A stretch of 31,614 nucleotides of DNA from a virus. Lineage: Duplodnaviria > Heunggongvirae > Uroviricota > Caudoviricetes. Each line of letters starts with the position of its first letter. Within the stretch, counting starts at the first letter, position 1. This document shows, piece by piece, positions 4,414 through 30,140 of this stretch. The stretch covers positions 1 to 31,614 of the IMG/VR virus record IMGVR_UViG_2579778529_000009; one strand, 5' to 3'. The notes beneath the pieces were generated by a model that saw only the letters and a list, made by a program, of their open reading frames with translations, did no database searches and was not told the origin of the DNA. Both the position numbers and the translations under genes were made by a program.

Positions 4414-4433
4414 AAATGATGAGTATCGTCCTG

Positions 4434-5177
4434 TTAACCTGCGGCGCTGACAGCCACCGCAGCCACTGCCACAAAATCGCCGTCAGAAGTCATGCCCACA
4501 ATGCTGACACTGCCCTGCTTCACGCCTTTCACCGTGGCCACAAGCCCGTTCAGGGTCACCGTGGCAGTCTGTGGATCTGTCGAATGCACACTGATCGCTT
4601 TGTCACTGGCTCCGTCAGGTTTTACTGTAAAGGTCAGCGTGGTGGTTGCTCCCACTTTTACACTGGCAGATGCCGGTGATACTGTCAGCCCGGTAACGCT
4701 CACGGTTTCAGTGCCTTCCTCTGCCAGATACGGACGCCCCACACCGCTGATTTTCACTGTGCGGGTCATCACGTCTTTTGAGGCAATGGTTTTACCCAGT
4801 GAGCTCAGCCAGCCACGGAAAACATCAACAGTGCCGTTGGGATATTTGATACGAAACGCGCAGACTTCACCGGAGTCGAACAACTGAACCAGTTTTTTCT
4901 GCCCGCTGTCACCCGGACGCCAGGCCAGCGTCGCCGAAGTATCACCGACGGATTTCTGCCCCTGGGTTGTCGTTTTCCAGTCTGCATCTTCATCATCGAG
5001 ATAAGTGTCATCTTCTGCATCAGCGGTCATTTCGCCAGGTTGCAGATCCTTCACCATCGCAAGACGCAGCCAGTCAGTGTCCGATAAAGGGTTCGCAAAC
5101 GCATCGCCCTTGCCGGTGTACATCCAGAACGTCGTTCCCGCACCTTTCGTTTTTGCCAGTGGATTTGGTGTGGTCAT
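4434..5177 (-). CDS. V: Major tail protein V with C-terminal Ig-like domain
   Basis: From ATG 5177: MTTPNPLAKTKGAGTTFWMY...LSDTDWLRLA...YLDDEDADW...FRGW matches recalled lambda gpV; C-terminal Thr/Val-rich beta segment typical of Ig-like domain; GGAGG upstream. Confidence 0.9.
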   Translation of the reverse strand: MTTPNPLAKTKGAGTTFWMYTGKGDAFANPLSDTDWLRLAMVKDLQPGEMTADAEDDTYLDDEDADWKTTTQGQKSVGDTSATLAWRPGDSGQKKLVQLFDSGEVCAFRIKYPNGTVDVFRGWLSSLGKTIASKDVMTRTVKISGVGRPYLAEEGTETVSVTGLTVSPASASVKVGATTTLTFTVKPDGASDKAISVHSTDPQTATVTLNGLVATVKGVKQGSVSIVGMTSDGDFVAVAAVAVSAAG

Positions 5178-5589: not shown

Positions 5590-6164
5590 CGGGTCAGCCA
5601 TAACCTCAGTTGTTGTTTCAGTGCATACCCCAGCTGTTTCGGCATTTCCGCAGCAATGATGCGGTCGCGGGCATCTTCAAATGCCTGTGTCAGCTGTCCG
5701 GACAGAGGGATTTTCACCACATCAATGGGGTAACGATTTTTGCCATCAATACGCCGCATCACATGCCAGCGACCATTCGCCAGTTGCTGAATAAACGCAT
5801 CCCGGAAAAGATATTTACCCACCTTCAGCACGCTGCCACGGTACTGCAGTTTTCCACCACGCCGGGTCAGTCTGACCCGGGCGGTCCCCAGCTTAATGGC
5901 AGGCAGATTGCCCCGGTTAACGCGGATCCTGGCCGTCATTTTTCCTGACGGACTGGCTTTAAACACCCGGACACGCTGACGTACCAGTTTCAGGGGGATC
6001 CCTTTCACCTGGTTATCTCCCGCAACGGTATTCCCGGCAACCTGCCGGGTGGCAACCGAGACCGCTTTCTGTGCCACACGGTTTATCGCCCATGCGCTGG
6101 CCTGTGGCACCATACGGGTATCAAGGCTGTTCAGATTGCGGATGGCATTCTCAAGCCCCTTCAT
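5586..6164 (-). CDS. Z: Tail completion protein Z
   Basis: 192 aa in the lambda Z position between FII-like and U; family assignment from position and size. Confidence 0.7.
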   Translation of the reverse strand: MKGLENAIRNLNSLDTRMVPQASAWAINRVAQKAVSVATRQVAGNTVAGDNQVKGIPLKLVRQRVRVFKASPSGKMTARIRVNRGNLPAIKLGTARVRLTRRGGKLQYRGSVLKVGKYLFRDAFIQQLANGRWHVMRRIDGKNRYPIDVVKIPLSGQLTQAFEDARDRIIAAEMPKQLGYALKQQLRLWLTR

Positions 6165-12804: not shown

Positions 12805-13380
12805 ATGCAGCGTCGAGAAATAAAGAAAATTACTTATTTAATCACTTTGATTTTAACTACTCTTTTGTTTGTTTATTTTTTAAGAACACCCACCACAATC
12901 AATATGAAACAGGCGCATAAAATAAATCAACAACACCAGACAATTTTCCTTATCCGTCACGGTGAACGATGTGACAGAAGCAAAAATGCATGTCTCTCAA
13001 GCAATAAAGGAATTACCGTCAATGGTGCCATTAAAGCTCATGATTATGGAAAAATATTTAGCAATACTTTCCCGTCATTCAGCCTTTACTCCACGGATAC
13101 CATACGGACAATGCAGACAGCCTGTTTTTTCTCTGGAGGAAAAGCAGCCTCCCGGATACCGTTGGCTGCAACATGCGGACTTGATGCTGCAAAGGACATA
13201 CTCAAATTGTCATCCGATAATAAAACTACCGTTATATTCACCCATAATCATTGCCTGACACAAATAGCAAAAAAAATGAAATGGTGGAAGTTAAAGCCAG
13301 AATATCTTGAAACACTGGTTCTTCATATCGAAAACAATCGTCTCATTCTTGACGGAAAACTGACTCACGATAAAGCGTAA
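12805..13380 (+). CDS. Ais/PmrG-like histidine phosphatase (LPS core heptose(II)-phosphate phosphatase homologue) with N-terminal signal/anchor; lysogenic-conversion cargo
   Basis: RHGERCDRS (RHG catalytic motif of histidine phosphatase superfamily), CLSSNKGITV, LYSTDTIRT, VIFTHNHCL, KPEYLETLVLHIE...LDG all parallel recalled E. coli Ais; hydrophobic N-terminus; AT-rich; opposite strand to late genes in the bor-equivalent slot. Confidence 0.75.
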   Translation: MQRREIKKITYLITLILTTLLFVYFLRTPTTINMKQAHKINQQHQTIFLIRHGERCDRSKNACLSSNKGITVNGAIKAHDYGKIFSNTFPSFSLYSTDTIRTMQTACFFSGGKAASRIPLAATCGLDAAKDILKLSSDNKTTVIFTHNHCLTQIAKKMKWWKLKPEYLETLVLHIENNRLILDGKLTHDKA

Positions 13381-13416
13381 CAATCATTCAAAGAGTCAAC
13401 ATATTTTCTGCATTAA

Positions 13417-14947: not shown

Positions 14948-15022
<75 letters not shown>

Positions 15023-15439: not shown

Positions 15440-16183
15440 TTATTCTTGAGCGGAGCCAGAACTCATCTCACTGAATGCAGCCATCCTGTAACCTTCCGGG
15501 GTGACCCCAAAATAACGCCTGAATACACTGATAAAATAAGATGTATTATTATAGCCACACTGCACAGCGATTCTGTTGATGGCACAGCTATATTGATGCA
15601 ACAGCATTGCTGCCATTCTCATTCTCTCCGTAAGCAACAACTCACTGAAACATGTGCCTTCTTCTTTCAGTCTTTTTTTTAACAAACTTTCACTCATACA
15701 TAACCGTGATGACACATCTCGCAGAGTCCAGTTTGCTGCAATGTCTGTATGAAACAACGCACCAAGCCTGCCGCTGATAGTACTGATACACGCGGTCATA
15801 AACGACGAAAACATTTTATCTGATGAAAAAAACGCCAGACACGAAAAGGAAAGCATTTCCGCTAAATTGTCCGTATGAATCTTTTCCTCATAAAGATAAT
15901 CAATCAGGATGCCCATCAATTCTGGCCTGGGAAAACTCATGCAAAGATATCGTGGCATTTTCCGGACTAAAACAACATCCTGTTTTACCCCACTACGCAA
16001 CAGGTAACGGCTAATTGTCGATTCACTGAGACTTATACGCCGAAAACATTCAGAAAAGGGCAATAACGGTCCAGCCCCTCCCCTGACAAGAAGTGCACTA
16101 CCACTTTCCAGAGAGAGTACTTTTCCTTCGAAGAGCACAACAAACGGGGAATGAACAAAAATAACAGAACAGGCCTCATTCAT
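15440..16183 (-). CDS. AraC-family transcriptional regulator (GadX/YdeO/AppY-like), prophage cargo
   Basis: C-terminal AraC-type double HTH (WTLRDVSSRLCMSESLLKKRLKEE...INRIAVQCGYNNTSYFISVFRRYFGVTP); ATG 16183 with AGGGA upstream (track ORF extends to 16291); AT-rich. Confidence 0.8.
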   Translation of the reverse strand: MNEACSVIFVHSPFVVLFEGKVLSLESGSALLVRGGAGPLLPFSECFRRISLSESTISRYLLRSGVKQDVVLVRKMPRYLCMSFPRPELMGILIDYLYEEKIHTDNLAEMLSFSCLAFFSSDKMFSSFMTACISTISGRLGALFHTDIAANWTLRDVSSRLCMSESLLKKRLKEEGTCFSELLLTERMRMAAMLLHQYSCAINRIAVQCGYNNTSYFISVFRRYFGVTPEGYRMAAFSEMSSGSAQE

Positions 16184-16460
16184 ATCAATATCCCTGACAT
16201 TACTGGTCGCAAGATAAGTATATATCACTTTACAAAAATGCAAGCCGTGAGCCCCGAATTCACGACCACCAGCGTGTTTACTGTACTGCACCAGGTTTAC
16301 AGGTACAAAAAACCGCTCGACGGCGGGTTTAAGCTGTGTGGCGAAGTAACCACTCTTAACAGATTAAGATAAAATTTGCGGACCGCGGTAATTTTTTTTG
16401 CTAAATTAAAGCCATATAAAAAAAGATCCATAAGAAATTATTAGTATACTAAGGTTTAAC

Positions 16461-17402
16461 ATGGCTACTATTGCGCAATCAAAGAAACAAAAAAAACTTA
16501 AAATTGGTTTTTACACCAGCAGTTCTGGGACTATCCGCAGCCATTCAGTTGCTAAGCAAGCAATTGAAAATCTGTATAATACTTGCGTAACCGTTACGAA
16601 TAATCATTTTGATACCATCTATAGAAATAAAAAGTTAAAAATAGCTTTTATAAATAAAGATACAAAAGCTAAATATTTCTTCGGCTACATGTCATGCTCA
16701 CGAGAAGAGTATCTCCTTCCTTATATTGGTGATGAATACTGGAATGAGCACAACATACCACTAGATGATAAAAAATACATAGTCGAAAGAACCTATTTTT
16801 TATATTATTACGATAGTGATATTTTAATATTAACTCAAAATCATCTTGGGCCGAAAGAATCGGATTTAGCTTATCTGCTTTACAGCCAGAGTGGTAATCC
16901 TGGAAATAACTTTTCATTCCAAGCCATCTGGAAAAAAGAGAGCGTCAAAGAGCTACTTGAAACAGGAAGTACTTTGAGAAGTTGTGATATTGTCCTGGCT
17001 GCTCCCAGGAACTTTGATGCAACAAATTACCAGCTAAATAGTTCATTTTCTAAGGAACTGGTAAATATGATGGTAGGGCTGGGTGGAACACGTCTCAAGT
17101 TAAATCTAAGGGGACGTGCATCAGGGAGAGTAAAAGTCAAAGGTTATTTATCAGATCTCGTTAAGGATGGTATTAAAGAACTCCTTGAAAAAATGCCGGG
17201 AATTGTAAAAAAAGCGGCAGTAACACAGCCCAAAAATACCGTTGAACAAAGTCTTCTTGATCAGGTACTCATTTCAGAAAAAAACATATATACCGTTAAT
17301 GGTTATGGCACTGATAGTGATGTTCTGCAAGCCATGATTTCTGCTAAAATTGATAACAATGAATACCTTAAGCAATACGATATCAGCAAAAAGAAGGTAT
17401 AG
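16461..17402 (+). CDS. Hypothetical 313-aa soluble protein; candidate RexA-like sensor component of a two-gene abortive-infection/exclusion module
   Basis: AT-rich; AAGG RBS 6 nt upstream; N-terminal KIGFYTSSSG and internal LGPKESDLAYLL resemble recalled lambda RexA motifs (GFYATYRS, GPTTSDLTDFL); 3-nt gap to downstream membrane gene. Confidence 0.5.
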   Translation: MATIAQSKKQKKLKIGFYTSSSGTIRSHSVAKQAIENLYNTCVTVTNNHFDTIYRNKKLKIAFINKDTKAKYFFGYMSCSREEYLLPYIGDEYWNEHNIPLDDKKYIVERTYFLYYYDSDILILTQNHLGPKESDLAYLLYSQSGNPGNNFSFQAIWKKESVKELLETGSTLRSCDIVLAAPRNFDATNYQLNSSFSKELVNMMVGLGGTRLKLNLRGRASGRVKVKGYLSDLVKDGIKELLEKMPGIVKKAAVTQPKNTVEQSLLDQVLISEKNIYTVNGYGTDSDVLQAMISAKIDNNEYLKQYDISKKKV

Positions 17403-17405
17403 GAT

Positions 17406-17849
17406 ATGTTATTGAAATACTTAAGAAACCTGATTGTAAGTGTTTTTTGCACCTTGTTCCTACTGAGGTATATCCCTCAGATGGGGCATGCTGACATACT
17501 TACAGCCTCCGGGGTTATTTCAACTGTATCCGGTATTTTATTTGGTTTTATTTTAGCCACAATATCAATTTTTAGTGCTGCTAGCGAAAACTCAAATGGA
17601 ATAATAAAAGCATTAAAAAACAACAACATACTTCAATTTATTATTGTAAATCTATTAACCGCAGGTGCATCTTTAATTACGGCATGCGTTATTGCTTTGA
17701 TAGCAATGTTTGCCAATGAAAAGACATTGTTACATGGAGAAAAAATAGAATTTATTTTAATTATCGAATCTTTATCTCTTCTTATCATTTCAGTAATAAC
17801 TTTTGCCTTTACATGGAGAAAAGTAAACTGGATACTCCCCCACATTTAA
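17406..17849 (+). CDS. 147-aa four-helix membrane protein; candidate RexB-like effector
   Basis: Four hydrophobic segments (about 8-20, 33-58, 75-102, 117-137); LFLLRYIPQ resembles recalled lambda RexB LLFRHYIPG; size matches RexB (144 aa); translationally coupled to upstream gene. Confidence 0.5.
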   Translation: MLLKYLRNLIVSVFCTLFLLRYIPQMGHADILTASGVISTVSGILFGFILATISIFSAASENSNGIIKALKNNNILQFIIVNLLTAGASLITACVIALIAMFANEKTLLHGEKIEFILIIESLSLLIISVITFAFTWRKVNWILPHI

Positions 17850-17872: not shown

Positions 17873-18235
17873 CTACTCCATTTCAAGTTTAACATCCAGC
17901 ATTGAAAGGCATCCATCAATAAACCCTTCAGCCATCTGTATCTCTATACGTATCAATTTCTCATCTTTTTTGCGAGCTCTTGCAAGCTTTCTTTTCGAGA
18001 TGCCATACAGGTAATGGGCCACAATCAAAGAATGCTCGTACGGTTTTCGCTTTTTAAGAAGAGCAAGACAACCTTCAATAATTAATGCATCACTATCTGA
18101 ACAAGCCTGACGTGTTTTGCTTGTATAGGGAAGAAGCCCTTTAAACCCAGCAGCTATAGGAGAATAGTCTACTCCTGAACTATCACTCGCCGCCCATGCT
18201 CCCCAACGATCCAGAACCATTTGAATATCACGCAT
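17873..18235 (-). CDS. Late-gene antiterminator Q (QuuD-like family)
   Basis: MRDIQMVLDRWGAWAA...IAAGFKGL...IIEGCLALLKK...QMAEGFIDGCLSMLDVKLEME closely parallels recalled E. coli K-12 QuuD; start taken at internal ATG 18235. Confidence 0.85.
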   Translation of the reverse strand: MRDIQMVLDRWGAWAASDSSGVDYSPIAAGFKGLLPYTSKTRQACSDSDALIIEGCLALLKKRKPYEHSLIVAHYLYGISKRKLARARKKDEKLIRIEIQMAEGFIDGCLSMLDVKLEME

Positions 18236-18252
18236 CAACTTTCTCCACAAAA

Positions 18253-19248
18253 TCAGGCCAGCACGCCAGTTGCCAGCGCACGATCGATAAAACGAAATAT
18301 CAGCTCCAGCTGGGAGCCATACCTCTCTTCAAATGCCACGGTATCCGCATGCAGCTCGTCGTGATGCTTTCTGCACAAAGGCAACACAAAAAGGTCATGC
18401 GCTTTTGTTCCCATTCCACCCTGACCGTAACCTATCAGGTGGTGGGGATCATCAGCGGGCTTTCCACAACATGCACACGGCTGTGTCTTAACCCAGCGCG
18501 TGTACTTTTCATTAACCCAGCGGCGACGTTTTGGGCGTAACATAAAAGACTCCGGCGACTCCGGATCCACTTTCAGCGCCAGCACCTTTTTCGCCTTATC
18601 CTGGATGATGCTGGTGGCAGGAACCGAAGGCACAAGGTCACTTTCCCGGGTGACAGACGGCACAACAGGCTTCGGTAATCTCAGTGCCTTACGGGCTGCA
18701 CTTTCCGGTAAGGCATCCGCCAGGTCATTACGAATCAGCCACCAGCACAGTTCCGGCATTGTCACAACGTGACTGTCATCAAAACCGAGATCCCGACGCA
18801 CAACAGACAACACCCAGCGGGCACAGTTATCCGTTGCCATTGATTCCAGCCGTTCCGTGAACTGATCGCGCAGCTGGTTATCGCAGTGCCAGCACAGACG
18901 GATTGCACCCGGAGCGTGTCGCATTGTGGTCATGTTCTCGCTGTGCCAGTCGGAATGAGGCCACTGGCAGCCTTTTTTACGAAGTAACCAGCTTTCAAGA
19001 CATTCCACGCCACCAGCACGACGGATCACTGCCTCATTGCGGAACACGGCCCGAACGGCAGGATCATCCGCCAGCGGTTGTGACGCCGCGGGAACGGCAC
19101 CACTGGCGAAAGATGAATAATGCTCCGGCTCAGGCTCCAGCAGGACACGCCCCTGCATAAACAGGGGCATCAGCTCTGAACCGGGCCTGAACAATACGAT
19201 CCCCATACGCGGGGCAATTTCAGGGGTCAGTAGTGCTCTCACGGTCAC
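18253..19248 (-). CDS. DUF968-family protein with C-terminal Cys/His (HNH-like) motif
   Basis: 331 aa; C-terminal CACCGK...DPHHL...CRKHHDELH; typical nin-region gene upstream of Q in lambdoid prophages. Confidence 0.55.
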   Translation of the reverse strand: MTVRALLTPEIAPRMGIVLFRPGSELMPLFMQGRVLLEPEPEHYSSFASGAVPAASQPLADDPAVRAVFRNEAVIRRAGGVECLESWLLRKKGCQWPHSDWHSENMTTMRHAPGAIRLCWHCDNQLRDQFTERLESMATDNCARWVLSVVRRDLGFDDSHVVTMPELCWWLIRNDLADALPESAARKALRLPKPVVPSVTRESDLVPSVPATSIIQDKAKKVLALKVDPESPESFMLRPKRRRWVNEKYTRWVKTQPCACCGKPADDPHHLIGYGQGGMGTKAHDLFVLPLCRKHHDELHADTVAFEERYGSQLELIFRFIDRALATGVLA

Positions 19249-19249
19249 C

Positions 19250-20047
19250 TCAATGAACGGTATCGAGCAGCTTTAACAGCTCAGGGAATCGGGATTCGAA
19301 GAAATGCGGCTGCGTCTCGCGCGGATTTGCGGGACTGGTGATGTTCTTGCCGAACATGCAGCCTTTCGCTGTCAGCGACCAGAATTTTTTGATGTTGTTA
19401 ATCGCGGTACGGCTGTATCGTTCGCGTTGTTCAACGATCCCCAGCTTCGCCATCTGGTGATATGCCTGATTAGCCGTCAGGCGGATACCATACTGTTTCA
19501 GCAGTGCACTCAGCGACAGCGTAGGGCGACTTGAGCCATCAGGCGCGTCAGCAGGAGCATCAATGGCATAGCGCGGTGCCAGATTCGGTAAGCCAACAGC
19601 CTCCTGGAGTTTCTGACAGGCACTAAGCACAGATGAGTTAGACAGATTTAACTCCCGACGCATAAAGTCCAGCAGAATCACACCAGCCTGCATCTTGTCA
19701 GCAGCCTGCCCGGATAATTTTTCCGGTATGCTGGTTACCATGTCAAAAGTACGGATCACCTTCAGATGGAATGACGGGCTAATCCACATTGCATAGGCAT
19801 ACACCAGTTCCTTGCAGACATACGTTCCCTGGTTATTTCCACCACGAATGACATTAACTGGCGCTATATTGACCGAGTTGCAAATCTGCAACTCGCTTAT
19901 TAAGCGTTCAGTTTGCTCATTGCGGAGCCAGAATGCGGGCTTATGCTTATCCAGAGAACCAGCAGCCCTGTGCAGATCGTTCAGGCTGTAACGACCATAA
20001 GCATCACGACGAACTTCAATACCATCAATAACCATCAGATTATTCAT
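19250..20047 (-). CDS. KilA-N domain protein (antirepressor-like)
   Basis: N-terminal IDGIEVRRDAYGRYSLNDLHRAAG pattern typical of KilA-N domains. Confidence 0.65.
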   Translation of the reverse strand: MNNLMVIDGIEVRRDAYGRYSLNDLHRAAGSLDKHKPAFWLRNEQTERLISELQICNSVNIAPVNVIRGGNNQGTYVCKELVYAYAMWISPSFHLKVIRTFDMVTSIPEKLSGQAADKMQAGVILLDFMRRELNLSNSSVLSACQKLQEAVGLPNLAPRYAIDAPADAPDGSSRPTLSLSALLKQYGIRLTANQAYHQMAKLGIVEQRERYSRTAINNIKKFWSLTAKGCMFGKNITSPANPRETQPHFFESRFPELLKLLDTVH

Positions 20048-20066
20048 ACTTCGTTTCTCCTCTTAA

Positions 20067-20456
20067 TCAGGCGGCTGCACCCGCCGTTTTCTCGTACTTA
20101 CTGATAGTGATCTCGACCTTCCCTTCCGGGATAACCGGTCCCCACTCCACCAGCATTCTTTTCACCTGACTGTCGTCTTCCCACACACCCGCGTGGGTCA
20201 GGGCGTCAAACAGCGCCTTGTTATAGTTGTCCAGATCGCGGATCCGGTTATCCGGAGGAAACAACACGATCTCCACTGAAGCAGGTGCCGACGTTGGTTT
20301 TGGCAGACGACGTAACTGCTCAACTATTGCTGCACACGCCGCGCTCTGAAATTTTCGCCCCGCCGCGCTTATCAGGCTCTTACCAGCAAATGCCCCTTTG
20401 TTGGGGTGTCGCCAGTACGTGTTCACGCTGGGCGGGAAAGGCAGGATTAGCTTCAT
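20067..20456 (-). CDS. rusA: Holliday junction resolvase RusA
   Basis: 129 aa; LPFPPSVNTYWRH...RDLDNYNKALFDALTHAGVWEDDSQV matches RusA family including catalytic Asp cluster. Confidence 0.85.
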   Translation of the reverse strand: MKLILPFPPSVNTYWRHPNKGAFAGKSLISAAGRKFQSAACAAIVEQLRRLPKPTSAPASVEIVLFPPDNRIRDLDNYNKALFDALTHAGVWEDDSQVKRMLVEWGPVIPEGKVEITISKYEKTAGAAA

Positions 20457-20779
20457 ACTTTCAGGCCTCTCTCATGTAACCAGTGGGCTGCACGCAACCT
20501 GGCGTTCTCCTCACCGGCAAGCAGTGCGCGGATGATACCGACCGCCTCGCTGTCGTCGTCCTTCACCGCGGTATGAAGCGTGATCCCCCGGGCCACGCCA
20601 CGCTTTATCGTGATGACGCCTTTTTTCTCCAGTGCGCGAAGATGCTCTACCGCTGCATTCACTGAACGGTATCCCAGCATGGTTGCCACCTCCTGATTGG
20701 TTGGCGGGAAGCCACGTTCTTTCTGGTAAGAAATCAGCATATCCAGCACCTGCTGCTGGCATTGAGTTAACGTCGTCAT
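20453..20779 (-). CDS. LexA DNA-binding-domain-only protein (no S24 peptidase domain)
   Basis: LTQCQQQVLDMLISYQKERGFPPTNQEVATMLGYRSVNAAVEHLRALEKKGVI parallels recalled LexA N-terminal winged HTH ([53 protein letters not shown]); only 108 aa. Confidence 0.7.
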   Translation of the reverse strand: MTTLTQCQQQVLDMLISYQKERGFPPTNQEVATMLGYRSVNAAVEHLRALEKKGVITIKRGVARGITLHTAVKDDDSEAVGIIRALLAGEENARLRAAHWLHERGLKV

Positions 20780-21429
20780 GCCGCCATCTCCCTGACCAGC
20801 TTTTCCGCCTGCAGGCGAACCTGCGCCAGAAACGCCTCACCACATGCCTCAAGTTCATCGCGCCCGATGTAGCTGATTGCCGGTCCCTTCCAGGTCTTGT
20901 CGAAAACAGCAATAGCACCAGCGAAGAAAGCGCCTGTCGGCACCTGCTTCTCATCCTTCGGGATAAACCAGGCAGGCAGTTCAAAACCAATACGCCCGCG
21001 AATAAAAGCAATATGATCTGCATCTTCCGGCCACCACACTTCGCTGGTGGCAGCTTTGATCAGGAAAACATAGCGCCCGCCCTTATCACGCATGGCACTG
21101 GCATGCTTCATGATGTAACGCATGCCGGTGATGTATTGCCCCTCATGCTGACTGGCGCGGCTGTATGGGGGATTTCCAAAGGCAGCACCTTTAAGCTCCG
21201 CAAGGCGTTCTGACCAGTCATGCGCCAGCGCGTTGTCTTCCGCCGTGTAATACGCAGCACATTTGGCGTTATCACCGTCAGTGAACAGATCCAGAACAAA
21301 CGGACCAAACAGGGTGTTAATTCCCCAGAAAATGTTGTCCGGCGTGCGCCACTGATCGCCCACTTCCTTCAGTTCATGGGCTGGTTTGTTCCGCAGTTCC
21401 ACCAGCTCCTGGCAATATTTATTACTCAT
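20776..21429 (-). CDS. DNA N6-adenine methyltransferase (phage Dam-like, orphan)
   Basis: FGNPPY motif IV; about 217 aa from ATG 21429 which overlaps stop of upstream gene; no adjacent restriction enzyme. Confidence 0.8.
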   Translation of the reverse strand: MSNKYCQELVELRNKPAHELKEVGDQWRTPDNIFWGINTLFGPFVLDLFTDGDNAKCAAYYTAEDNALAHDWSERLAELKGAAFGNPPYSRASQHEGQYITGMRYIMKHASAMRDKGGRYVFLIKAATSEVWWPEDADHIAFIRGRIGFELPAWFIPKDEKQVPTGAFFAGAIAVFDKTWKGPAISYIGRDELEACGEAFLAQVRLQAEKLVREMAA

Positions 21430-21923
21430 TAAGCCCCCACGTAATTCCCTGACAGATACCACTCATCACCCGATACAGCGCGCTTGCTGCTTTTCCGTAA
21501 ACACTGCTCACGACGCGCCAGAAAATTGTTTCGTTCTGGCTGGGAGTGGCTTTCACGGAATGCCGCCATCCACACCGTTGCAGCACGACGGTATAAGCCC
21601 CTGGACTCCAGTTCTTCAGCCTGGCGGGTCAGGCATAAAATCTCCCGCGGGTCGTTAGTGCCGACATAGAAATTGCGCACAGGTCTGGTTTCACGAACTG
21701 GTTGCCGTTCCGCCTCCGGCGATATCTTTGTCTGGCGCGGGAAATGTCTGCGTGTATCCCCTTCACAACGGTGAGCCACACGCCCACTCTGACGTAACTT
21801 GCTTGCTGACTGCAGAACGCGCTGCCGTGAGTAACCTGCAAAAGCATCCGCAATGTCTCCGGAAGTACACCCCGGATGGGCTTCAATGAATTTCTGAACT
21901 TCATTCAAAAGACTCATGATCAC
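21429..21923 (-). CDS. Putative regulator with C-terminal PerC-like motif
   Basis: LESRGLYRRAATVWMAA...ARREQCLRKS resembles PerC/Pch family signature; N-terminal HTH-like segment; ATGA coupling to replication gene. Confidence 0.4.
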   Translation of the reverse strand: MIMSLLNEVQKFIEAHPGCTSGDIADAFAGYSRQRVLQSASKLRQSGRVAHRCEGDTRRHFPRQTKISPEAERQPVRETRPVRNFYVGTNDPREILCLTRQAEELESRGLYRRAATVWMAAFRESHSQPERNNFLARREQCLRKSSKRAVSGDEWYLSGNYVGA

Positions 21924-22738
21924 CCCCTGAATCCTGCCGGGATCTGGCTGTAGTCCACGTTGTCGTAACTGGCTTTGAAGTACGGGTCCTCACGTCTGGC
22001 TGCAGATACCGCAGGAACTTCCCAGGATTCTTCGAAATGACGATCCGGACCAAAGAACGTGACAGCCTGTTTCACAAATTGTGTGCCGCTGTTACCCATC
22101 GCAGATACCCAGCCCGCATAGCGTTTCACACCTTCCAGCATGGTTTCGGGGTTTACCCCCTCATTCAAACGGGCTTTCCAGGCTTTGAAGGCTGCAGATT
22201 TTGAATTGCCACCAGCACGTTTGGGATATGCCAGCCATGCCTGCTCAAACTCCGGAGAGTATTCCGGTCGGTTTGAACGAACTCGCACAGACTCATCAGC
22301 AGATGCACCAACAGCTATTGGTTCATTGACTGGTTCTTTGACTGGTTCAAAAGAGTGACTGGTTCTGGGTGAATCTCCTGCACTACCCCCTAGTGCAACT
22401 CCTGCACTACCTGGTGAATTTGCTGCACCAGATAGTGAATTATTTGCACTACCCCCTAGTGAATCTCCTGCACCATCCAGATGAAGGAGATAGATATTAC
22501 TTGAGTTACCTTTTTCACCTTTCCGGGTGACTTTTTTTACCAGCCCGGACTCACAAAGGGCCGCAATATGATTCATCACAGAACGTTTGCTAATCTCGCA
22601 CTGGTCAGCAATATGCTGGTAGCTGGGCCAGCACTCACCCTGATCGCTGGCATTATCAGCCAGCTTGATCAGAACCAGTTTTCGCAATGGATTACCCACT
22701 CGAATTTTCATCGCTTTAACCATCAGCTCCATACTCAT
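21920..22738 (-). CDS. Putative replication initiation protein (N-terminal HTH; contains iteron-like repeats)
   Basis: N-terminal HTH (WPSYQHIADQCEISKRSVMNHIAALCESGLVKK), low-complexity Gly/Ser/Ala middle encoded by DNA direct repeats, conserved C-terminal domain; O-equivalent position. Confidence 0.55.
   Translation of the reverse strand: MSMELMVKAMKIRVGNPLRKLVLIKLADNASDQGECWPSYQHIADQCEISKRSVMNHIAALCESGLVKKVTRKGEKGNSSNIYLLHLDGAGDSLGGSANNSLSGAANSPGSAGVALGGSAGDSPRTSHSFEPVKEPVNEPIAVGASADESVRVRSNRPEYSPEFEQAWLAYPKRAGGNSKSAAFKAWKARLNEGVNPETMLEGVKRYAGWVSAMGNSGTQFVKQAVTFFGPDRHFEESWEVPAVSAARREDPYFKASYDNVDYSQIPAGFRG
22320..22475. repeat. Cluster of short direct repeats inside replication gene; candidate iteron-type origin
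   Basis: TGACTGGTTC x3 (about 22329-22365) and TGCACTACCCCCTAGTG / GTGAATCTCCTGCAC each x2 (about 22368-22474). Confidence 0.4.
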
Positions 22739-22959
22739 GCTGCACCTCCGAGATGCTTCATGTTTTTTCCGGAGCGAAAGGTTATAAGCGGCATACTGAC
22801 GCGGTAATTACGGCCCAGCGGTTCACAAATCACCTTCTGACATTCACGGTCAACCAGGCTAACACGTAGAACATGCCCTGCAGGTGTGGTGTACCACTGA
22901 CCCGGACGAGGACAACGGAAAGTCTGATTGGTAAACCGTTTGAAAATATTCCGGATCAT
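22735..22959 (-). CDS. Hypothetical small protein (74 aa)
   Basis: Start and stop both overlap neighbours in ATGA-type couplings, suggesting genuine translation. Confidence 0.4.
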   Translation of the reverse strand: MIRNIFKRFTNQTFRCPRPGQWYTTPAGHVLRVSLVDRECQKVICEPLGRNYRVSMPLITFRSGKNMKHLGGAA

Positions 22960-23501
22960 TTGCGCCCCCTTACCTCTGAAGGGTTCAGCGACAAATTTAT
23001 GAGGCAGGCCAGTGCCGAAGCATCATTAATATAGTCATACAAGCTAACAGCCAGCGGAGATTCGGCTTTTGCCAACATAGGATAAAGCTGCTGCAGCCAG
23101 ACCTGATGAATTGATGAAATGTAGGAACAGAGAACGCTGGCGTTATGTGCAACGTCGCTCGGTACAGCGGGCTTTGAAAGCTGTTTCTCCATCTGGTTAA
23201 AGGCATTGATGTATGCCTCTTTGAACTGGGCAGCACGTTTACCCGTGAAACCCATAGCAAGAAACGCAAAGCCGTCGCGGGTTATTTGATAGCAAGGTAG
23301 TTTGCGGCCTGTGCAATCGGTGTAATCACTCACCGAAAAATTGCGGGCAGTGAATGATGCGGAACATTCAAGCGTGCGGATCTTTTTCAGTACATCGTCA
23401 TGACGTTTGGAGAAGAAGTTGGCAACAGCCAGGGATGAAGTAACAGCCTGACCATCAACGATGGCAATTTCAGGTTGAGTGAGGGTTGGGATCGTAGCCA
23501 T
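22956..23501 (-). CDS. Rha-family phage regulatory protein (from internal ATG 23501; ORF remains open upstream to 24107)
   Basis: MATIPTLTQPEIAIVDGQAVTSSLAVANFFSKRHDDVLKKIRTLE... typical Rha N-terminal domain; AAAGAGG RBS upstream of ATG 23501. Confidence 0.65.
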   Translation of the reverse strand: MATIPTLTQPEIAIVDGQAVTSSLAVANFFSKRHDDVLKKIRTLECSASFTARNFSVSDYTDCTGRKLPCYQITRDGFAFLAMGFTGKRAAQFKEAYINAFNQMEKQLSKPAVPSDVAHNASVLCSYISSIHQVWLQQLYPMLAKAESPLAVSLYDYINDASALACLINLSLNPSEVRGRK

Positions 23502-24103
23502 GATGGCAGCCTCTTTGGTGATTTTTAATAACTCACCACCAAGGCTTTCCACGACCTTATTGGTGGTGAGACGTACAGGGGTGGAAATACCGGTCACCAA
23601 AGAACCCGGCCCAACCGAAGTTGGCCCTGCACGCCCCACCATAATTTGGGCGTAATGCTGCTCATGACACAAAAAAACCGCAAGAGCGCGGTTGTGCGCT
23701 TTGGTGAATTCCGGGTTTCCACGCCCGGCACCCGCTTTATAAGGTGCCTGAACAGTGTAACGTCCCGGAATGGCAGAATCAATGTGCTGGTGGTCCTTCA
23801 CACTCAACAAAATCACGCCTGAATTTCCACAAAGGACTAAAGCATTCATGCGGGTAGTCTTTGCGAAGATAGATAACGCGCTGTGTTTCTGGCTCCCAAC
23901 GAATAACATGAACATAAAGTCCTCTTCCGTCACGAAACCAGCGGTTAAGTTCCTGCACAACTCGCCCCCCACAGTCAGGTAAAGTTCTCTGTGGTTACTT
24001 ACAGCCAGGTGATTTGGTAATCTGCATTCATGCCGTAACAACAGGTGTGCAGCGACACTGACCACCAGCTGTTGCGACAAACGGTTATTTGCCGTTAAAC
24101 TGT

Positions 24104-24655
24104 TCATGCGTTAGTTTCTCCACAGACACAAAACGCCACGACGCCCGGAGCTGCACACTCGCGGGCGTCACTCTTTTCTGGAGCGCAGAAAATTTTGTAG
24201 ACCAGTGCCGCATGCTCCTGGAGCTTCGAAATTGACAGATACAATTCATCATTAATTGCTGTCTGCTCGTGTGGCTCCACTACCCCATCTTCGATTGCCG
24301 AACGAATCTGCTTTGAGTAACTCCCGATCTGTTCGATGACTTCCAGCAGGCGCTGGTTTATATCTGCGTTCTCTACTTCCTCAATTTCAGGAAGCGATAC
24401 AAACACCCCACCAGCAGACTGTGCGACAGCATCCGCAATGTAGTGAGTGCCAGCAGCACGCTGTAAAATCATTGCCCATCCCAGCGGGAAAATCTGATCG
24501 CCATCTGCACGAAGGCGGTTGAATAAAGCGTTCTCTGTAACATCCAGCCACTCAGCAGCTTCAGCGTAACCCCCCGGCAACGCCGCGATAGTTTTTCTGA
24601 CAGCTTTCACGTACCACTCAGGCTGTTTTTCCACTTTCCAGTGATGATTACCCAC
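24104..24655 (-). CDS. Hypothetical regulator in the cII position (function unassigned)
   Basis: 183 aa directly downstream of cro-like gene, start overlaps cro stop; no confident motif. Confidence 0.35.
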   Translation of the reverse strand: MGNHHWKVEKQPEWYVKAVRKTIAALPGGYAEAAEWLDVTENALFNRLRADGDQIFPLGWAMILQRAAGTHYIADAVAQSAGGVFVSLPEIEEVENADINQRLLEVIEQIGSYSKQIRSAIEDGVVEPHEQTAINDELYLSISKLQEHAALVYKIFCAPEKSDARECAAPGVVAFCVCGETNA

Positions 24656-24908
24656 GGCTTACCTCCTGTTCCTGTGGTTTAAACCCATTCTGGTTTTGGC
24701 TAGATTGAAAACGTGCCGGATAAAGAATCTGCATTTCGCTGATTTCACCCTTAAAAAAATTGGCCAGACGTTCTGCAAGATCGATAGATGGAATTTGTTC
24801 CAGTCTTTCAATACGACTCAGCGTCGCTGGATTGACCTGAACGCCAGCAGCAACATGCTGCAAAGTAAATCCGTGCGCCTTACGCACATTACGTAATGGT
24901 GATTGCAT
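24648..24908 (-). CDS. Cro-like HTH (XRE-family) repressor
   Basis: 86 aa, HTH (FTLQHVAAGVQVNPATLSRIER); divergent from CI-like gene across operator region; GGAGG upstream. Confidence 0.7.
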   Translation of the reverse strand: MQSPLRNVRKAHGFTLQHVAAGVQVNPATLSRIERLEQIPSIDLAERLANFFKGEISEMQILYPARFQSSQNQNGFKPQEQEVSRG

Positions 24909-25005: not shown

Positions 25006-25698
25006 ATGAACATAGGAAACCGAGTCAGACAACTTCGCCAGGCGAAGAACATGAAAATAGCCGATCTCGCTGAAGCAATAGGAGTGGATGCGGCGAATAT
25101 CTCACGCCTGGAAACAGGTAAGCAGAAACAATTCACTGAACAAGCCCTGAGTAATATTGCCAGGAGCTTAGGTGTTGATATTGCTGATCTCTTTACCTCA
25201 GACTTCAAAAGTAATACTGTATGCAAAAACAGTATTAGTGAGGATGTTGCGCAGGTGAAGGATGTATTCCGTATTGAAATGCTGGATGTCAGTGCCAGTG
25301 CGGGAAATGGCCTTATCCAGGGCGGTGATGTCATTGATGTGATTCATGCCATTGAATACAGAACTGATAATGCTGTATCGATGTTTGGCGGACGGCCAGC
25401 CAATCACATTAAAGTTATCAACGTTCGTGGGGACAGTATGTGTCCAACCATTGAGCCAGGAGATCTCATCTTCGTTGATGTCAGTATCAATCAGTTTGAT
25501 GGAGATGGTATCTATGTATTTGGTTTTGATGATAAAATTTATGTCAAACGACTGCAAATGATACCTGACAAACTACTGGTGATTTCTGATAACCAGATTT
25601 ACCGTGAATGGGGAATTACCAGCGAAAATGAACACCGGTTTATGGTCTTTGGAAAGGTCTTAATCAGCCAGTCACAAACCCTTAAGCGACACAATTAA
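25006..25698 (+). CDS. CI-like repressor (HTH XRE + S24 LexA-like autopeptidase)
   Basis: N-terminal HTH (NMKIADLAEAIGVDAANISRLETGK); C-terminal S24 domain with Ser in VRGDSM and Lys in YVKRL. Confidence 0.9.
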   Translation: MNIGNRVRQLRQAKNMKIADLAEAIGVDAANISRLETGKQKQFTEQALSNIARSLGVDIADLFTSDFKSNTVCKNSISEDVAQVKDVFRIEMLDVSASAGNGLIQGGDVIDVIHAIEYRTDNAVSMFGGRPANHIKVINVRGDSMCPTIEPGDLIFVDVSINQFDGDGIYVFGFDDKIYVKRLQMIPDKLLVISDNQIYREWGITSENEHRFMVFGKVLISQSQTLKRHN

Positions 25699-25753
25699 CC
25701 CTTACCTCCTCATCAATTAGCCACCCGAAGGTGGCTTTTCATTACTCATCAAA

Positions 25754-25792
25754 TTGCATATCTCGCAACAAAAACACTTGCATAATGCGCAA
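25754..25792 (+). promoter_or_regulatory. oL-like operators downstream of cI
   Basis: Two sites TTGCATATCTCGCAA and TTGCATAATGCGCAA, 24 bp apart, same TTGC-N7-GCAA consensus as the oR region. Confidence 0.45.
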
Positions 25793-26497
25793 CTTCATTT
25801 TATCTTTCTTTCCAGACAAACAAACAAGGTACTAACAAAATTTGGTTGTAACACGGCGTATGGCACATGCGTCGTTAGCGGTCTGGGGACGTTAAAGGGG
25901 ACAATCCACTCCTTGCTCGGGCAAACAAACCAGGTAGCCGGAATGTGCAAGTCAATGATGATGCTGATAAGACGCCTAACCAGCGTGGCGATTCGGTTTG
26001 ACGCCTGGGAAGAGACCAGGGTGCAACGATGAGGGCATTTATGGAACCGCGACAAAGTGTGGTGCCGTAACTGGCTAAGTGCTCTCAGCGTTGTGGTGAA
26101 TGCGCAGGCTGATGCGCGAAAGACATTGCAGATATTGCGGAAAAGAGCTGTTCGGCGGGGCAATTAAATGCCCGTGAGAGTCTGAAATAACCGCAAGCCG
26201 GAGATCAGCACCGGTCACCACAACAGCCACTGCTTTGGCGGTACCAGTTTGTACACTTGCTTCCGGCTGGTACCGTCCTTTTTACAAAACAGAGAAGAGC
26301 ATCACCGGACGACGGGCTCATAACCCAATCCATCCGGGCGGCTGCCACCGCAGGTGTTCTTCTCTGTTTTGTGGAGAAACTAACCGCCCCTGCGGGGGCA
26401 TCTATTGAAACGTAATTGACTCAATAATCGCCGGATGGTGAGGGCTTCCTTTTCCCAAAATTCAGCGCGGTGCAGCGCATATAAAGTGGAGAACGAA

Positions 26498-28414: not shown

Positions 28415-28445
28415 GGGAAGCAATAAGCTTCCCTTCTCTTTATTT
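28415..28445 (+). terminator. Intrinsic terminator at end of early-left operon, overlapping 3-prime end of convergent gene
   Basis: GGGAAGC-AATAA-GCTTCCC hairpin followed by TTCTCTTTATTT. Confidence 0.5.
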
Positions 28446-30140
28446 AGGTACGCTATCAACACTTTTGAGAATCGTTGATGTTAAAGGCTGCGACTTTAGT
28501 AAGTCTCGAGAAATATCCGGATCTGGTATAGCTATTTTTACTAAACTCTCAAGTTTTTCAAACCACTCCCCATCATTCATTGAGAATAAGTTATGAAGAG
28601 CTTCATTTTTATTTTTGAACCCCCAAGCCTTATAATTATTACCACAGTATTTTGACGCAGCAGTTAGAATATGCCAGCGTAATTTTGAATACTTCCCATC
28701 AAACCTCTTATTTGAGATAAGAGCCTTTAGCCTATACAAGCAATAGCAAGATATATAATAATCATCCTCGAGGGCATCGGAAGAGAAAACCTCATTAAGT
28801 AAGTCACCAGTTAACCTATTTGGATAACGACTGGAATAATCTGGTCTCATCATAACAATAGCAGCATATGCTCGCGCAACTTCTCTGATATCAAATATGC
28901 GTACTGGAGCTATACTTTCTGAACTATACTGCCCCTTTCTTCTCTCAAAATAAATTTTATTTCCTTCAATAGCACCTTTAGCATTAAAATAATGTTCTAA
29001 TTCCCTTAATTTTTTTAGCGTTGAAATGAACTGTGCATCTTCAACTTTAGATTGTCTATTCGTAGCTCGTACAATGTCATCAAGGATCGCTGGCTCATCG
29101 GTTTCAATTAATTTAATCATTAAACTAACTGATTCATCTACTTGAATGTCTTTTGATATAAGAACATTAGACGTTTGACATCCATTAACAATTTGAAAAT
29201 CTCGTATAAAAATTTCTTGCCCTGCAGGCCTCACGCTTGATGCAACTATTGTCACTCCATTATTCATTAAACCAAATCTTGCTTTTTTTCCATCAGTATC
29301 TAGTGTTCCTGCAATTTCTGAATTTACGTCACCATCAATTCCCAGAAAATCTCTAACATTTTCTTCGAATAATTTTTTTCGAGGGTTTCCATTTTTGTCT
29401 TTAAGTATAGAATCAATAAAACTACGAGCTTTGACTGTAGCTACATAGGCATTATTAATATTAGGGGCCGCTGGGAATGGAGCATAGCCTATTGTAGGAA
29501 GTTTAGCTTCTATTGGACCTTCCGCAGCAAGCCAAAGCTCATGAATCATGTCTTTGTGAGCCATAATGAAGGATGTTTCATGTGAAAACCCGAGTGACTT
29601 TAAGCTTTTTTCACCCGATGCAAATGCAGCTTTTATTTCTCTGGCCTCTGTATTTTGTGCAGCACTAAAAAAATATGCGTATAAGTCTGGAAGGCCATTT
29701 TTGACTCTGCCGATATTAGCAAATATCAAGTTGAACATTTTTTTAAAGTCCGCTAGATATTCACTGTGGGGTTGTTGTGGCGCTGGTGAAAGATAATCTC
29801 TTATTGACGCAATGTAAGAGTCTATTTCCTGTTTGCTCCACTTCTCCGATGACTTAGCTTGCGTGAATACTAATGAAACTTGAAACTCGCGACGTGAGTT
29901 TTGGAAAATCTCCTGAAGTTCTTCAGTTGAAAAAATGGCTCTGTCGTCTAAAAATAAAAATGCTCCATCAATACCAGGGTCCGGGCCTTCATACACAAGA
30001 TCACTGACCTCAACTTTGTCGCCTGAGTATTTTGAAAAAGCACAATAGTTCACAAACGCCTCAAAATTTTTGGTCTCCTCATAGGGCGCAGCGAATGCTT
30101 TGCAAAAGGCATCGAAATAAGATTTCGTGACTAAATGCAT
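28440..30140 (-). CDS. Large AT-rich orphan protein (about 566 aa); candidate abortive-infection/defence protein (AIPR-like?)
   Basis: ATG 30140 preceded by AAAGGAG; visibly lower GC than flanks; between xis-like gene and integrase, convergent with early-left operon; possible N-terminal nuclease-like acidic motif (GIDGAFLFLDD...FQVSLVFTQAK), unverified. Confidence 0.5.
   Translation of the reverse strand: MHLVTKSYFDAFCKAFAAPYEETKNFEAFVNYCAFSKYSGDKVEVSDLVYEGPDPGIDGAFLFLDDRAIFSTEELQEIFQNSRREFQVSLVFTQAKSSEKWSKQEIDSYIASIRDYLSPAPQQPHSEYLADFKKMFNLIFANIGRVKNGLPDLYAYFFSAAQNTEAREIKAAFASGEKSLKSLGFSHETSFIMAHKDMIHELWLAAEGPIEAKLPTIGYAPFPAAPNINNAYVATVKARSFIDSILKDKNGNPRKKLFEENVRDFLGIDGDVNSEIAGTLDTDGKKARFGLMNNGVTIVASSVRPAGQEIFIRDFQIVNGCQTSNVLISKDIQVDESVSLMIKLIETDEPAILDDIVRATNRQSKVEDAQFISTLKKLRELEHYFNAKGAIEGNKIYFERRKGQYSSESIAPVRIFDIREVARAYAAIVMMRPDYSSRYPNRLTGDLLNEVFSSDALEDDYYISCYCLYRLKALISNKRFDGKYSKLRWHILTAASKYCGNNYKAWGFKNKNEALHNLFSMNDGEWFEKLESLVKIAIPDPDISRDLLKSQPLTSTILKSVDSVPK

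Follow-up and report, generated by a model that had tools for sequence, protein, structure and literature searches.

The stretch of DNA analysed here in its full length of 31,614 nucleotides (the window; IMG/VR record IMGVR_UViG_2579778529_000009) is a lambdoid prophage of Escherichia coli ETEC1738 (100% identity to NZ_CP122768.1), integrated beside yjjG, and it carries, between the genes for a Dam methyltransferase and a RusA resolvase, a small gene whose product consists of a LexA-type winged helix-turn-helix (wHTH) and a conserved C-terminal tail, with no autopeptidase domain. This LexA-like gene is under purifying selection, lies in a delayed-early operon, behaves as an optional cassette and belongs to a family whose phages are associated with canonical SOS boxes. 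The explanation that we prefer, tentatively, is that the protein is a stable LexA surrogate, made after derepression of the prophage, which would re-occupy LexA-type boxes of both phage and host once the host repressor has gone. A more ambitious version, in which a RecA-blind surrogate found in about two-fifths of E. coli genomes re-closes SOS-box promoters and acts together with a conserved box in the linker of the cI gene, seems to us possible but doubtful.

In the scheme that we infer for its DNA specificity, dimerisation, stability, timing of expression and physiological pay-off, the protein would be made from the delayed-early (pR-type) operon, and so only after derepression of the prophage or during infection, at a time when, in an SOS-induced cell, host LexA would already have cleaved itself. 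The wHTH would recognise CTGT half-sites of the LexA type, and two copies could be joined on a palindromic box either through the C-terminal helical hairpin or through cooperative contacts on DNA. As it has no S24 domain, the protein should be blind to RecA*, and since its C-terminus, …ERGLKV, is unlike the …VAA end of the natural N-terminal fragment of LexA, it would probably escape ClpXP. The outcome would be renewed repression of SOS-box promoters. Phage-borne targets could include, in relatives, the boxes found before KilA-N or antirepressor-like genes, before dinI and at a late methyltransferase gene and, in the window, the box inside cI; host targets could include the SOS regulon, with those functions of competing prophages that LexA controls.

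Mutagenesis, antibiotic tolerance, the release of Shiga toxin and the induction of prophages all depend on how the SOS response runs. If the surrogate explanation is right, induced lambdoid and Stx prophages would reshape their host's SOS response (mutagenesis, filamentation, colicins and the antirepressors of rival prophages) as well as their own SOS-wired genes, and prophage–prophage cross-talk through LexA-controlled antirepressors would be tunable by one small gene. A protein sitting uncleavably on LexA boxes would also make SOS dynamics in induced cells vary between strains, predictably by gene; the carriers include Stx2a, Stx2c and Stx2k phages as well as cdt and Shigella serotype-converting phages. 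Should the protein have an operator of its own instead, it would represent a second independent phage re-tooling of a host LexA DNA-binding domain, after gp6 of the Bacillus thuringiensis tectivirus GIL01, which would be a more ordinary outcome.

LexA-type domain, contact residues and conserved tail

A first-pass annotation, made from the sequence alone, had noted that the first 70 or so residues of the protein parallel the wHTH of LexA, that the protein has only 108 residues and lacks an S24 domain, and that its gene shares an operon with RusA and a Dam-like methyltransferase. All of this is borne out, and profile searches find the homology to LexA on which that annotation had staked its reading. 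PF01726 (LexA_DNA_bind) matches residues 1–65 over the full length of the model (1–65 of 65; E = 2.9e-19, with a score of 69 bits where the cutoff is 23.7). A phmmer search of the PDB sequences aligns residues 2–70 without a gap to residues 2–70 of E. coli LexA (N-terminal domain, 1lea; E = 6.5e-16), and tblastn with LexA residues 1–69 gives 51.5% identity to the LexA-like gene. The AlphaFold2 model (predicted local distance difference test, pLDDT, 82) has three helices (residues 6–22, 28–35 and 40–52) and a two-stranded wing (56–58 and 66–68), and superposes on 1lea and 3jso with a root-mean-square deviation (rmsd) of 1.0–1.2 Å over 66–68 residues (Foldseek). Several results speak for the absence of an S24 domain: the NCBIfam equivalog model for LexA, TIGR00498, scores 70.5 bits against a cutoff of 110.95 and is covered only at positions 1–91 of 203; a Pfam search of the 108-residue protein finds no Peptidase_S24 match, and the S24 domain with its Ser119–Lys156 dyad is not present; and a profile–profile alignment (hhalign) of the family with full-length LexA ends at LexA residue 87. 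The pair Ala88–Gly89 aligns with the LexA cleavage site, Ala84–Gly85, in a segment predicted to be helical, and is not conserved in distant members of the family. With no catalytic domain, the protein lacks the ability for RecA*-stimulated autocleavage at the equivalent of Ala84–Gly85.

According to the summary that PMC11442139 gives of the LexA–DNA crystal structure, direct readout of CTGT falls mainly to Ser39, Asn41, Ala42 and Glu45. All four residues are kept (encoded at 20663–20665, 20657–20659, 20654–20656 and 20645–20647, respectively), and the RGI motif of the wing is invariant in the family. Glu44 of LexA is replaced here by Val (20648–20650), and the residue is non-acidic in every family member; Glu44 figures as a contact only in an older LexA model based on nuclear magnetic resonance (PMC13416735). 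A natural N-terminal fragment of LexA keeps SOS-box binding and repression, and its removal by ClpXP is needed for SOS activation (PMC10584840); a protein made of the DNA-binding domain only is therefore a plausible repressor. The retained contact set makes binding of SOS boxes by the LexA-like protein plausible. As for the second copy needed on a palindrome, Kim and Little are said to have reported in 1992 that LexA is able to dimerise on DNA.

The main rival explanation starts from the same helix. It holds that the protein is a dedicated regulator of the gp6 kind, whose LexA wHTH has drifted to an operator of its own and which acts, as activator or repressor, on one or a few promoters of the phage in lytic growth. 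There is precedent: the site bound by gp6 is GaCACAnnTGTGaC, not the LexA box, and gp6 switches on the late promoter P3 (PMC6182141). The substitution of Glu44 throughout the family would fit a similar drift, as would a new dimerisation module, which would probably alter the spacing of half-sites; yet the four crystallographic CTGT-reading residues are all kept, unlike what is reported for gp6. The position of the gene just upstream of DUF968–Q is fixed in five contexts with 40–100% identity, which counts in its favour. Against it, late transcription in lambdoid phages is run by Q, which is present here (PF06530). Moreover, no candidate private operator was found, the gene being flanked by overlapping open reading frames (ORFs), and the protein has no sequence relation to gp6 (see below). 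We regard a private operator as unlikely, if well worth weighing.

Residues 71–108, overlooked in the first-pass annotation, are a conserved module and not a stump. In the AlphaFold2 model a disordered linker (residues 71–74) is followed by a helical hairpin (75–87 and 93–102); the tail is conserved in homologues from Escherichia, Citrobacter, Salmonella and Hafnia, and relatives with 40–50% identity share its motif, in which Ala97 and Leu101 are invariant. Searched against Pfam, the tail belongs to no family and gives only an insignificant match to NIL; searched against the PDB with Foldseek, the wHTH alone matches, the MarR, DtxR and ArsR matches having rmsd values of 8–13 Å. As modelled, the tail may serve in dimerisation or in binding a partner. 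Between its first helix and the cleavage-site strand of LexA there is a weak alignment (VGIIRALLAGE against LVGRVAAGE), probably a trace left from an ancestor that was a full lexA gene. The idea that the tail serves in trans as a substrate or inhibitor mimicking the cleavage loop of LexA (LLAGE against VAAGE) was rejected as a primary idea, the Ala–Gly pair not being conserved in distant members.

The protein matches PHROG 362 ('transcriptional repressor') from end to end (residues 1–108 against positions 1–106 of 106; E = 1.6e-59), the putative role in this name being an annotation. The Prokaryotic Genome Annotation Pipeline (PGAP) names it 'LexA family transcriptional regulator', and phage records have 'LexA-like protein', 'LexA DNA binding domain protein' or, in some cases and wrongly, 'SOS-response repressor and protease LexA'. 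Genes with 96–99% identity are found in SfII, SfIV, SfV (orf42), cdtI, mEp460 and the Stx2a, Stx2c and Stx2k phages, and 2,233 of 5,426 complete E. coli genomes carry the gene (about 41%), with up to four copies per genome; a search of genome contigs with the single protein returned only a Shigella flexneri representative and distant LexA-like matches. Relatives of 106–135 residues, with 40–53% identity and the same architecture, were found in an exhaustive search of 1.8 billion representatives. In the literature we found listings, such as that of a pfam01726-only 'pham 237' (PMC8136144), and no functional study of the LexA-like gene. The gene is already annotated and very common, and the roles proposed for it are predictions from sequence.

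Among the protein clusters the 108-residue form dominates (2527, 782 and 374 member sequences), with occasional frameshifted or fused variants. Over 50 distinct alleles, 49 of which are intact, the ratio of non-synonymous to synonymous polymorphism (pN/pS) comes to 0.13 for the gene as a whole, with 0.05 for the DNA-binding domain and 0.24 for the tail. The low ratio and the intact alleles indicate that the gene is maintained by selection, which bears directly on the possibility that it is a non-functional remnant of a captured lexA gene. Homology that fades at the cleavage-site region, as it would after a truncation, the frameshifted or fused variants and the dispensability of the gene in 5 of 61 relatives could all be read in that way. 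Opposed to it are the pN/pS value, the dominance of the 108-residue form, the conservation of the tail across the four genera named above and the clades with 40–50% identity, and the clean loss of the gene at ATGA junctions, with no decay, in the relatives that lack it. A dead remnant is hardly credible and, as far as allele sequences can tell, effectively refuted by the selection analysis.

Lytic operon and cassette behaviour

The operon that holds the LexA-like gene reads cro-like, ymfL, Rha, a small hypothetical ORF, O-like HTH_36/DnaD_N, PerC, Dam, LexA-like, RusA, KilA-N, DUF968 and Q, with the isrK and C4 RNAs listed at Rha, after ymfL. Overlaps of 4 bp (ATGA) join the LexA-like gene to Dam on one side and to RusA on the other, and it is translationally coupled to both. 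The scan of 20047–21462 gave no promoter-like or terminator-like site on the minus strand, and within the operon there is no intergenic DNA near the gene, whose flanking ORFs overlap it. The gene is a member of the rightward early (delayed-early, pR-type) operon, and we infer that it is expressed in the lytic phase. From this position, and as the gene has no promoter-like site to itself, we expect silence in the lysogen, and the protein would therefore act after induction or during infection. A promoter of its own was considered. In the record for SfV a putative promoter for dam is marked upstream of dam-orf42; its hexamers are poor, the equivalent in the window is no better, and we do not rely on it.

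The earlier view of the protein as a LexA DNA-binding domain that cannot cleave itself stands. From it the first-pass annotation had gone on to suggest that such a mimic could occupy SOS boxes and interfere with, or insulate, prophage induction by the SOS response; read as a role in the lysogen, this would have the protein buffer the induction of the very prophage that encodes it. The sole strong SOS box of the window does lie in the immunity region, inside cI, and the dam promoter annotated in SfV could be cited in support. The lytic-operon position, the absence of a promoter-like site and the poor hexamers just described argue otherwise, and a cleavable cI with helix-turn-helix (HTH) and S24 domains is present, so that induction does not use an SOS-box promoter for the protein to shield. 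This part of the earlier proposal is highly improbable.

The gene lies one to three genes upstream of DUF968 and Q in five of five contexts, at 40–100% identity, and in SfIV and Ayreon it adjoins PerC, without Dam. In four relatives (L137, L143, L144 and L167) the 324-bp ORF is precisely absent, and the stop codon of Dam is fused to the start codon of RusA at the same ATGA; such Dam–RusA junctions lie at about 5771–5774, 6158–6161 and 5629–5632 of gene-less contigs. Altogether the gene is absent from 5 of 61 relatives, in which Dam, RusA and DUF968 are intact at 95–100% identity. The gene is an optional cassette exchanged at overlapping start/stop junctions, and the gene-less contigs are natural deletion controls.

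These neighbours also bear on a different proposal, in which the protein is an architectural or targeting accessory of Dam, RusA or DUF968/HNH, comparable to NinH, that binds DNA with low specificity or recruits a partner through its tail. NinH of lambda is a homodimeric DNA-binding protein of the nin region that mimics the host protein Fis (PMC7166090), and the coupling to Dam and RusA, the constant presence of DUF968 one to three genes downstream, a conserved tail that matches no known dimerisation fold and the partner-like orf80, immediately upstream in 28 of 34 P0137-like loci (see below), are in keeping with such a role. Where the cassette is absent, however, Dam, RusA and DUF968 are intact, so that none of them needs it, and the gene of SfIV and Ayreon sits by PerC with no Dam to assist; the kept sequence-specific contact residues, for their part, favour specific over architectural binding. 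We hold an accessory role to be improbable.

SOS boxes in the window and across the family

A search for CTGT-N8-ACAG, the check suggested in the first-pass annotation, does find sites in the window, but only two, one of them at chance level and neither at an obvious promoter. The plain count (two against 0.48 expected) is alone uninformative, as 9 of 100 shuffles reach two or more, and a graded SOS-box score was needed to single out the exceptional site. This is TACTGTATGCAAAAACAGTA, a near-consensus box with perfect TACTGT and ACAGTA arms and without a second strong one in the window; in 300 Markov-simulated windows its score is never reached, and the analytic expectation is 0.002. It differs from the E. 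coli umuDC box at two spacer positions. The box lies inside the cI-like repressor gene (HTH and S24; 25006–25698, plus strand), in codons 70–76 of the inter-domain linker. Diverged cI alleles (about 70% identity) keep it while the encoded residues vary (TVCKNS, TVYINS, TVYLNS, TVCINS and TVYEYS), and the sole invariant residues of the linker, Thr71, Val72 and Ser76, are those encoded by the arms of the box. It is kept in 80 of 80 viral loci with this cI allele, with five spacer variants; loci with the cI-internal box include L016, L024, L061, L124 and L127–L206. That the arms are kept while the encoded residues change points to selection on the DNA site, and the box is a candidate site of action for host LexA and perhaps for the LexA-like protein too.

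Neither a promoter scan nor inspection by eye found a convincing promoter at the cI-internal box, and we found no literature report of a LexA box inside a cI linker. An antisense LexA-controlled promoter in cI, directed toward cro, was considered and is not supported: the element TTCACC-17-AATACT beside the box is below the threshold of the scan, and the L024 allele has no equivalent by eye. Strict co-occurrence of the cI box with the LexA-like gene was likewise set aside; the two occur together in 56 of 61 cases, but the five exceptions keep the box, and with the features only 4.4 kb apart the association is linkage, not proof.

Beyond the window, SOS boxes were surveyed in the phages and loci of this gene family and in five relatives without the gene. 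All five of the complete gene-carrying phages or prophages examined have at least one strong SOS box. In SfIV and the L127-type relatives a box is found downstream of the cassette, in the intergenic region that comes first there, before a KilA-N or regulator gene; cdtI has a tandem pair in front of dinI; and a box of sequence TACTGTAAAAATAAACAGTG lies over the start and first codons (MKNTVKINSV) of a late DNA methyltransferase gene between Q and the lysis genes. The last is another SOS box within coding sequence.

The association is strongest in the P0137-like clade, in which 25 of 34 loci have a box scoring at least 15 of 20 no more than 1.5 kb upstream of the LexA-like gene; of the 18 loci that have dinI, 17 show the box directly before a DinI gene (PF06183, E = 8e-22). 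The DinI gene heads a string, dinI-orf80-LexA-like, the middle member of which is a conserved 80-residue gene with no Pfam match that adjoins the LexA-like gene on its upstream side in 28 of 34 loci. In L105 (4209–5327) a strong terminator precedes this string, and the −10 of a promoter-like element overlaps the SOS box. In this clade, to judge from the sequence, the uncleavable LexA look-alike appears to be itself repressed by LexA; in the more ambitious version given at the outset, the protein would there close a negative-feedback loop on the SOS regulon, one that is direct and LexA-repressed. Among L098–L126 the terminator, the SOS-box promoter, dinI, orf80 and the LexA-like gene form a compact unit, and many loci have a second box about 480 bp upstream. 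In L109 (2635–4311) a large upstream ORF ends about 20 bp before a box scoring 19 of 20, and this box overlaps the start predicted for an ORF of 125 residues, which is followed by a small ORF of 64 residues and then by one of 379 residues that is RecA-like by eye; the layout suggests that an SOS module carried by the phage lies upstream of the LexA-like gene.

Several points weigh against a surrogate acting on SOS boxes. The window has no SOS box at a recognisable promoter; in the P0131-like clade a box lies within 5 kb in just 7 of 80 loci; boxes persist in the 5 of 61 relatives without the gene; and the survey, given its scope, makes no claim of enrichment over other temperate phages. Host LexA alone explains the SOS boxes of many temperate phages, for example at LexA-controlled antirepressors (PMC8044961, PMC3121763). 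As for the protein, it is possible that the universal replacement of Glu44 shifts specificity or affinity, and the C-terminal domain that sets dimer geometry in LexA is gone, so that the preferred spacing may differ. Finally, GIL01 gp6, a truncated phage homologue of LexA, evolved a new palindrome and an activator role (PMC6182141).

Other features of the window and comparison with known systems

The coordinates of the features are collected in the table. Several phage records of RefSeq (SfII, SfV, cdtI, mEp460 and Stx2a_WGPS2) label the Dam protein 'phosphoadenosine phosphosulfate reductase', probably an annotation artefact, whose likely source is phrog_33262, a profile of 495 positions that Dam matches only at positions 283–492. 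The C4 and isrK RNAs lie inside the 5′ part of the 383-residue 'Rha family' ORF, each with a terminator-like hairpin (23619–23605 and 23693–23676); the region looks like an ant module of the P1/Gifsy type, controlled by small RNAs, and the true start of the Rha ORF is probably downstream of the annotated one. A moron-like block (15441–17849) between Q and the lysis genes, at the site of stx in Stx phages, contains, according to PGAP, an AraC-family regulator (minus strand), a DUF6731 protein (plus strand) and a hypothetical protein (plus strand). The 800 bp between cI and yfdR (25699–26497) hold no convincing ORF; one terminator-like hairpin follows right after cI (25719–25736, plus strand), two lie on the minus strand (26400–26385 and 26580–26556), and a small gene or RNA may have escaped annotation in this stretch. 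Because its minor tail U family gene is annotated as frameshifted, the prophage may have a defective tail.

Table. Positions of the LexA-like gene, its parts and neighbours, SOS boxes and other features (positions refer to the window unless a phage or locus is named)
Feature	Position	Strand	Basis or remark
LexA-like gene	20453..20779	-	ATG start, 108 codons plus stop; PGAP WP_000210154.1; PHROG 362
LexA-type wHTH, codons 1–70	20570..20779	-	PF01726, LexA alignment, AlphaFold2 model/Foldseek, pN/pS 0.05
Recognition helix RSVNAAVEHLRAL region, codons 39–52	20624..20665	-	Direct sequence read, LexA alignment
C-terminal tail, codons 71–108 (linker and helical hairpin)	20456..20569	-	AlphaFold2 model, family conservation, pN/pS 0.24
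ATGA overlap, Dam stop/LexA-like start	20776..20779	-	Sequence; junction where the cassette is precisely absent in some relatives
ATGA overlap, LexA-like stop/RusA start	20453..20456	-	Sequence
Dam, phage N6-adenine methyltransferase (upstream neighbour)	20776..21429	-	PF05869, E = 1e-45
RusA Holliday-junction resolvase (downstream neighbour)	20067..20456	-	PF05866, E = 6e-15
Delayed-early operon holding the LexA-like gene	17873..24908	-	Gene content, family matches, promoter/terminator scan
Near-consensus SOS (LexA) box TACTGTATGCAAAAACAGTA	25215-25234	.	Only strong box in the window; perfect arms
Methyltransferase-start SOS box TACTGTAAAAATAAACAGTG	SfV L208:34170; cdtI L210:44083; Ayreon L211:41489; L132:1159		
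C4 antisense RNA	23559-23646	-	Rfam, 83.6 bits
isrK Hfq-binding small RNA	23671-23747	-	Rfam, 67 bits
tRNA-Gly (anticodon TCC), between Q and lysis genes	14948-15022	-	ARAGORN and Rfam
Lipopolysaccharide core heptose(II)-phosphate phosphatase, between terminase and lysis genes	12806-13381	+	PGAP
AIPR-family (abortive-infection-type) protein beside integrase	28440-30140	-	PGAP
Minor tail U family gene	4423-4823	-	Annotated as frameshifted in source record

Among known systems, gp6 of GIL01 is the one studied phage protein made of a LexA DNA-binding domain only; it is a truncated LexA homologue, with 44% identity to its own host's LexA DNA-binding domain and with an operator at about −43.5 of the late promoter (PMC6182141). 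It resembles the LexA-like protein in being a phage-encoded LexA-type wHTH without an S24 autopeptidase, in being the product of an early gene and in acting in a phage that couples its life cycle to the LexA of its host. However, BLASTP against gp6 (L207:4350–4547) gives no alignment at E ≤ 100, and the two are therefore best seen as independent captures in different host lineages. Whereas gp6 has 66 residues and no extra module, the LexA-like protein has a conserved helical hairpin of 38 residues; and whereas gp6 binds a palindrome of its own and activates a late promoter, here the CTGT-reading residues are kept and late control belongs to Q.

With E. coli LexA, or its N-terminal cleavage fragment (residues 1–84), the LexA-like protein shares the fold (about 51% identity over residues 2–70), the contact set Ser39, Asn41, Ala42 and Glu45 and the RGI wing. 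It differs from LexA in having neither the S24 domain nor the catalytic Ser and Lys, in the change of Glu44 to Val and in carrying a helical tail where the fragment ends in the ClpX-recognised …VAA; its gene, moreover, belongs to a phage lytic operon and, except in the distant dinI-linked clade, is not autoregulated through an SOS box. NinH of lambda (PMC7166090) is likewise a small mimic, encoded in a lambdoid nin region by a dispensable accessory gene, of a global DNA-binding protein of the host, but its Fis-type HTH is unrelated to the wHTH of LexA, and it mimics a nucleoid protein and not the SOS repressor. Lastly, the antirepressors of Gifsy, Fels-2, 186 and N15, together with CTXphi, illustrate, as described in PMC8044961 and PMC3121763, temperate phages with canonical SOS boxes that take host LexA as an input. 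The relatives of this prophage similarly have boxes before KilA-N or antirepressor-like genes and before dinI; but those switches use host LexA only, whereas here the phage adds an uncleavable LexA-type DNA-binding protein of its own.

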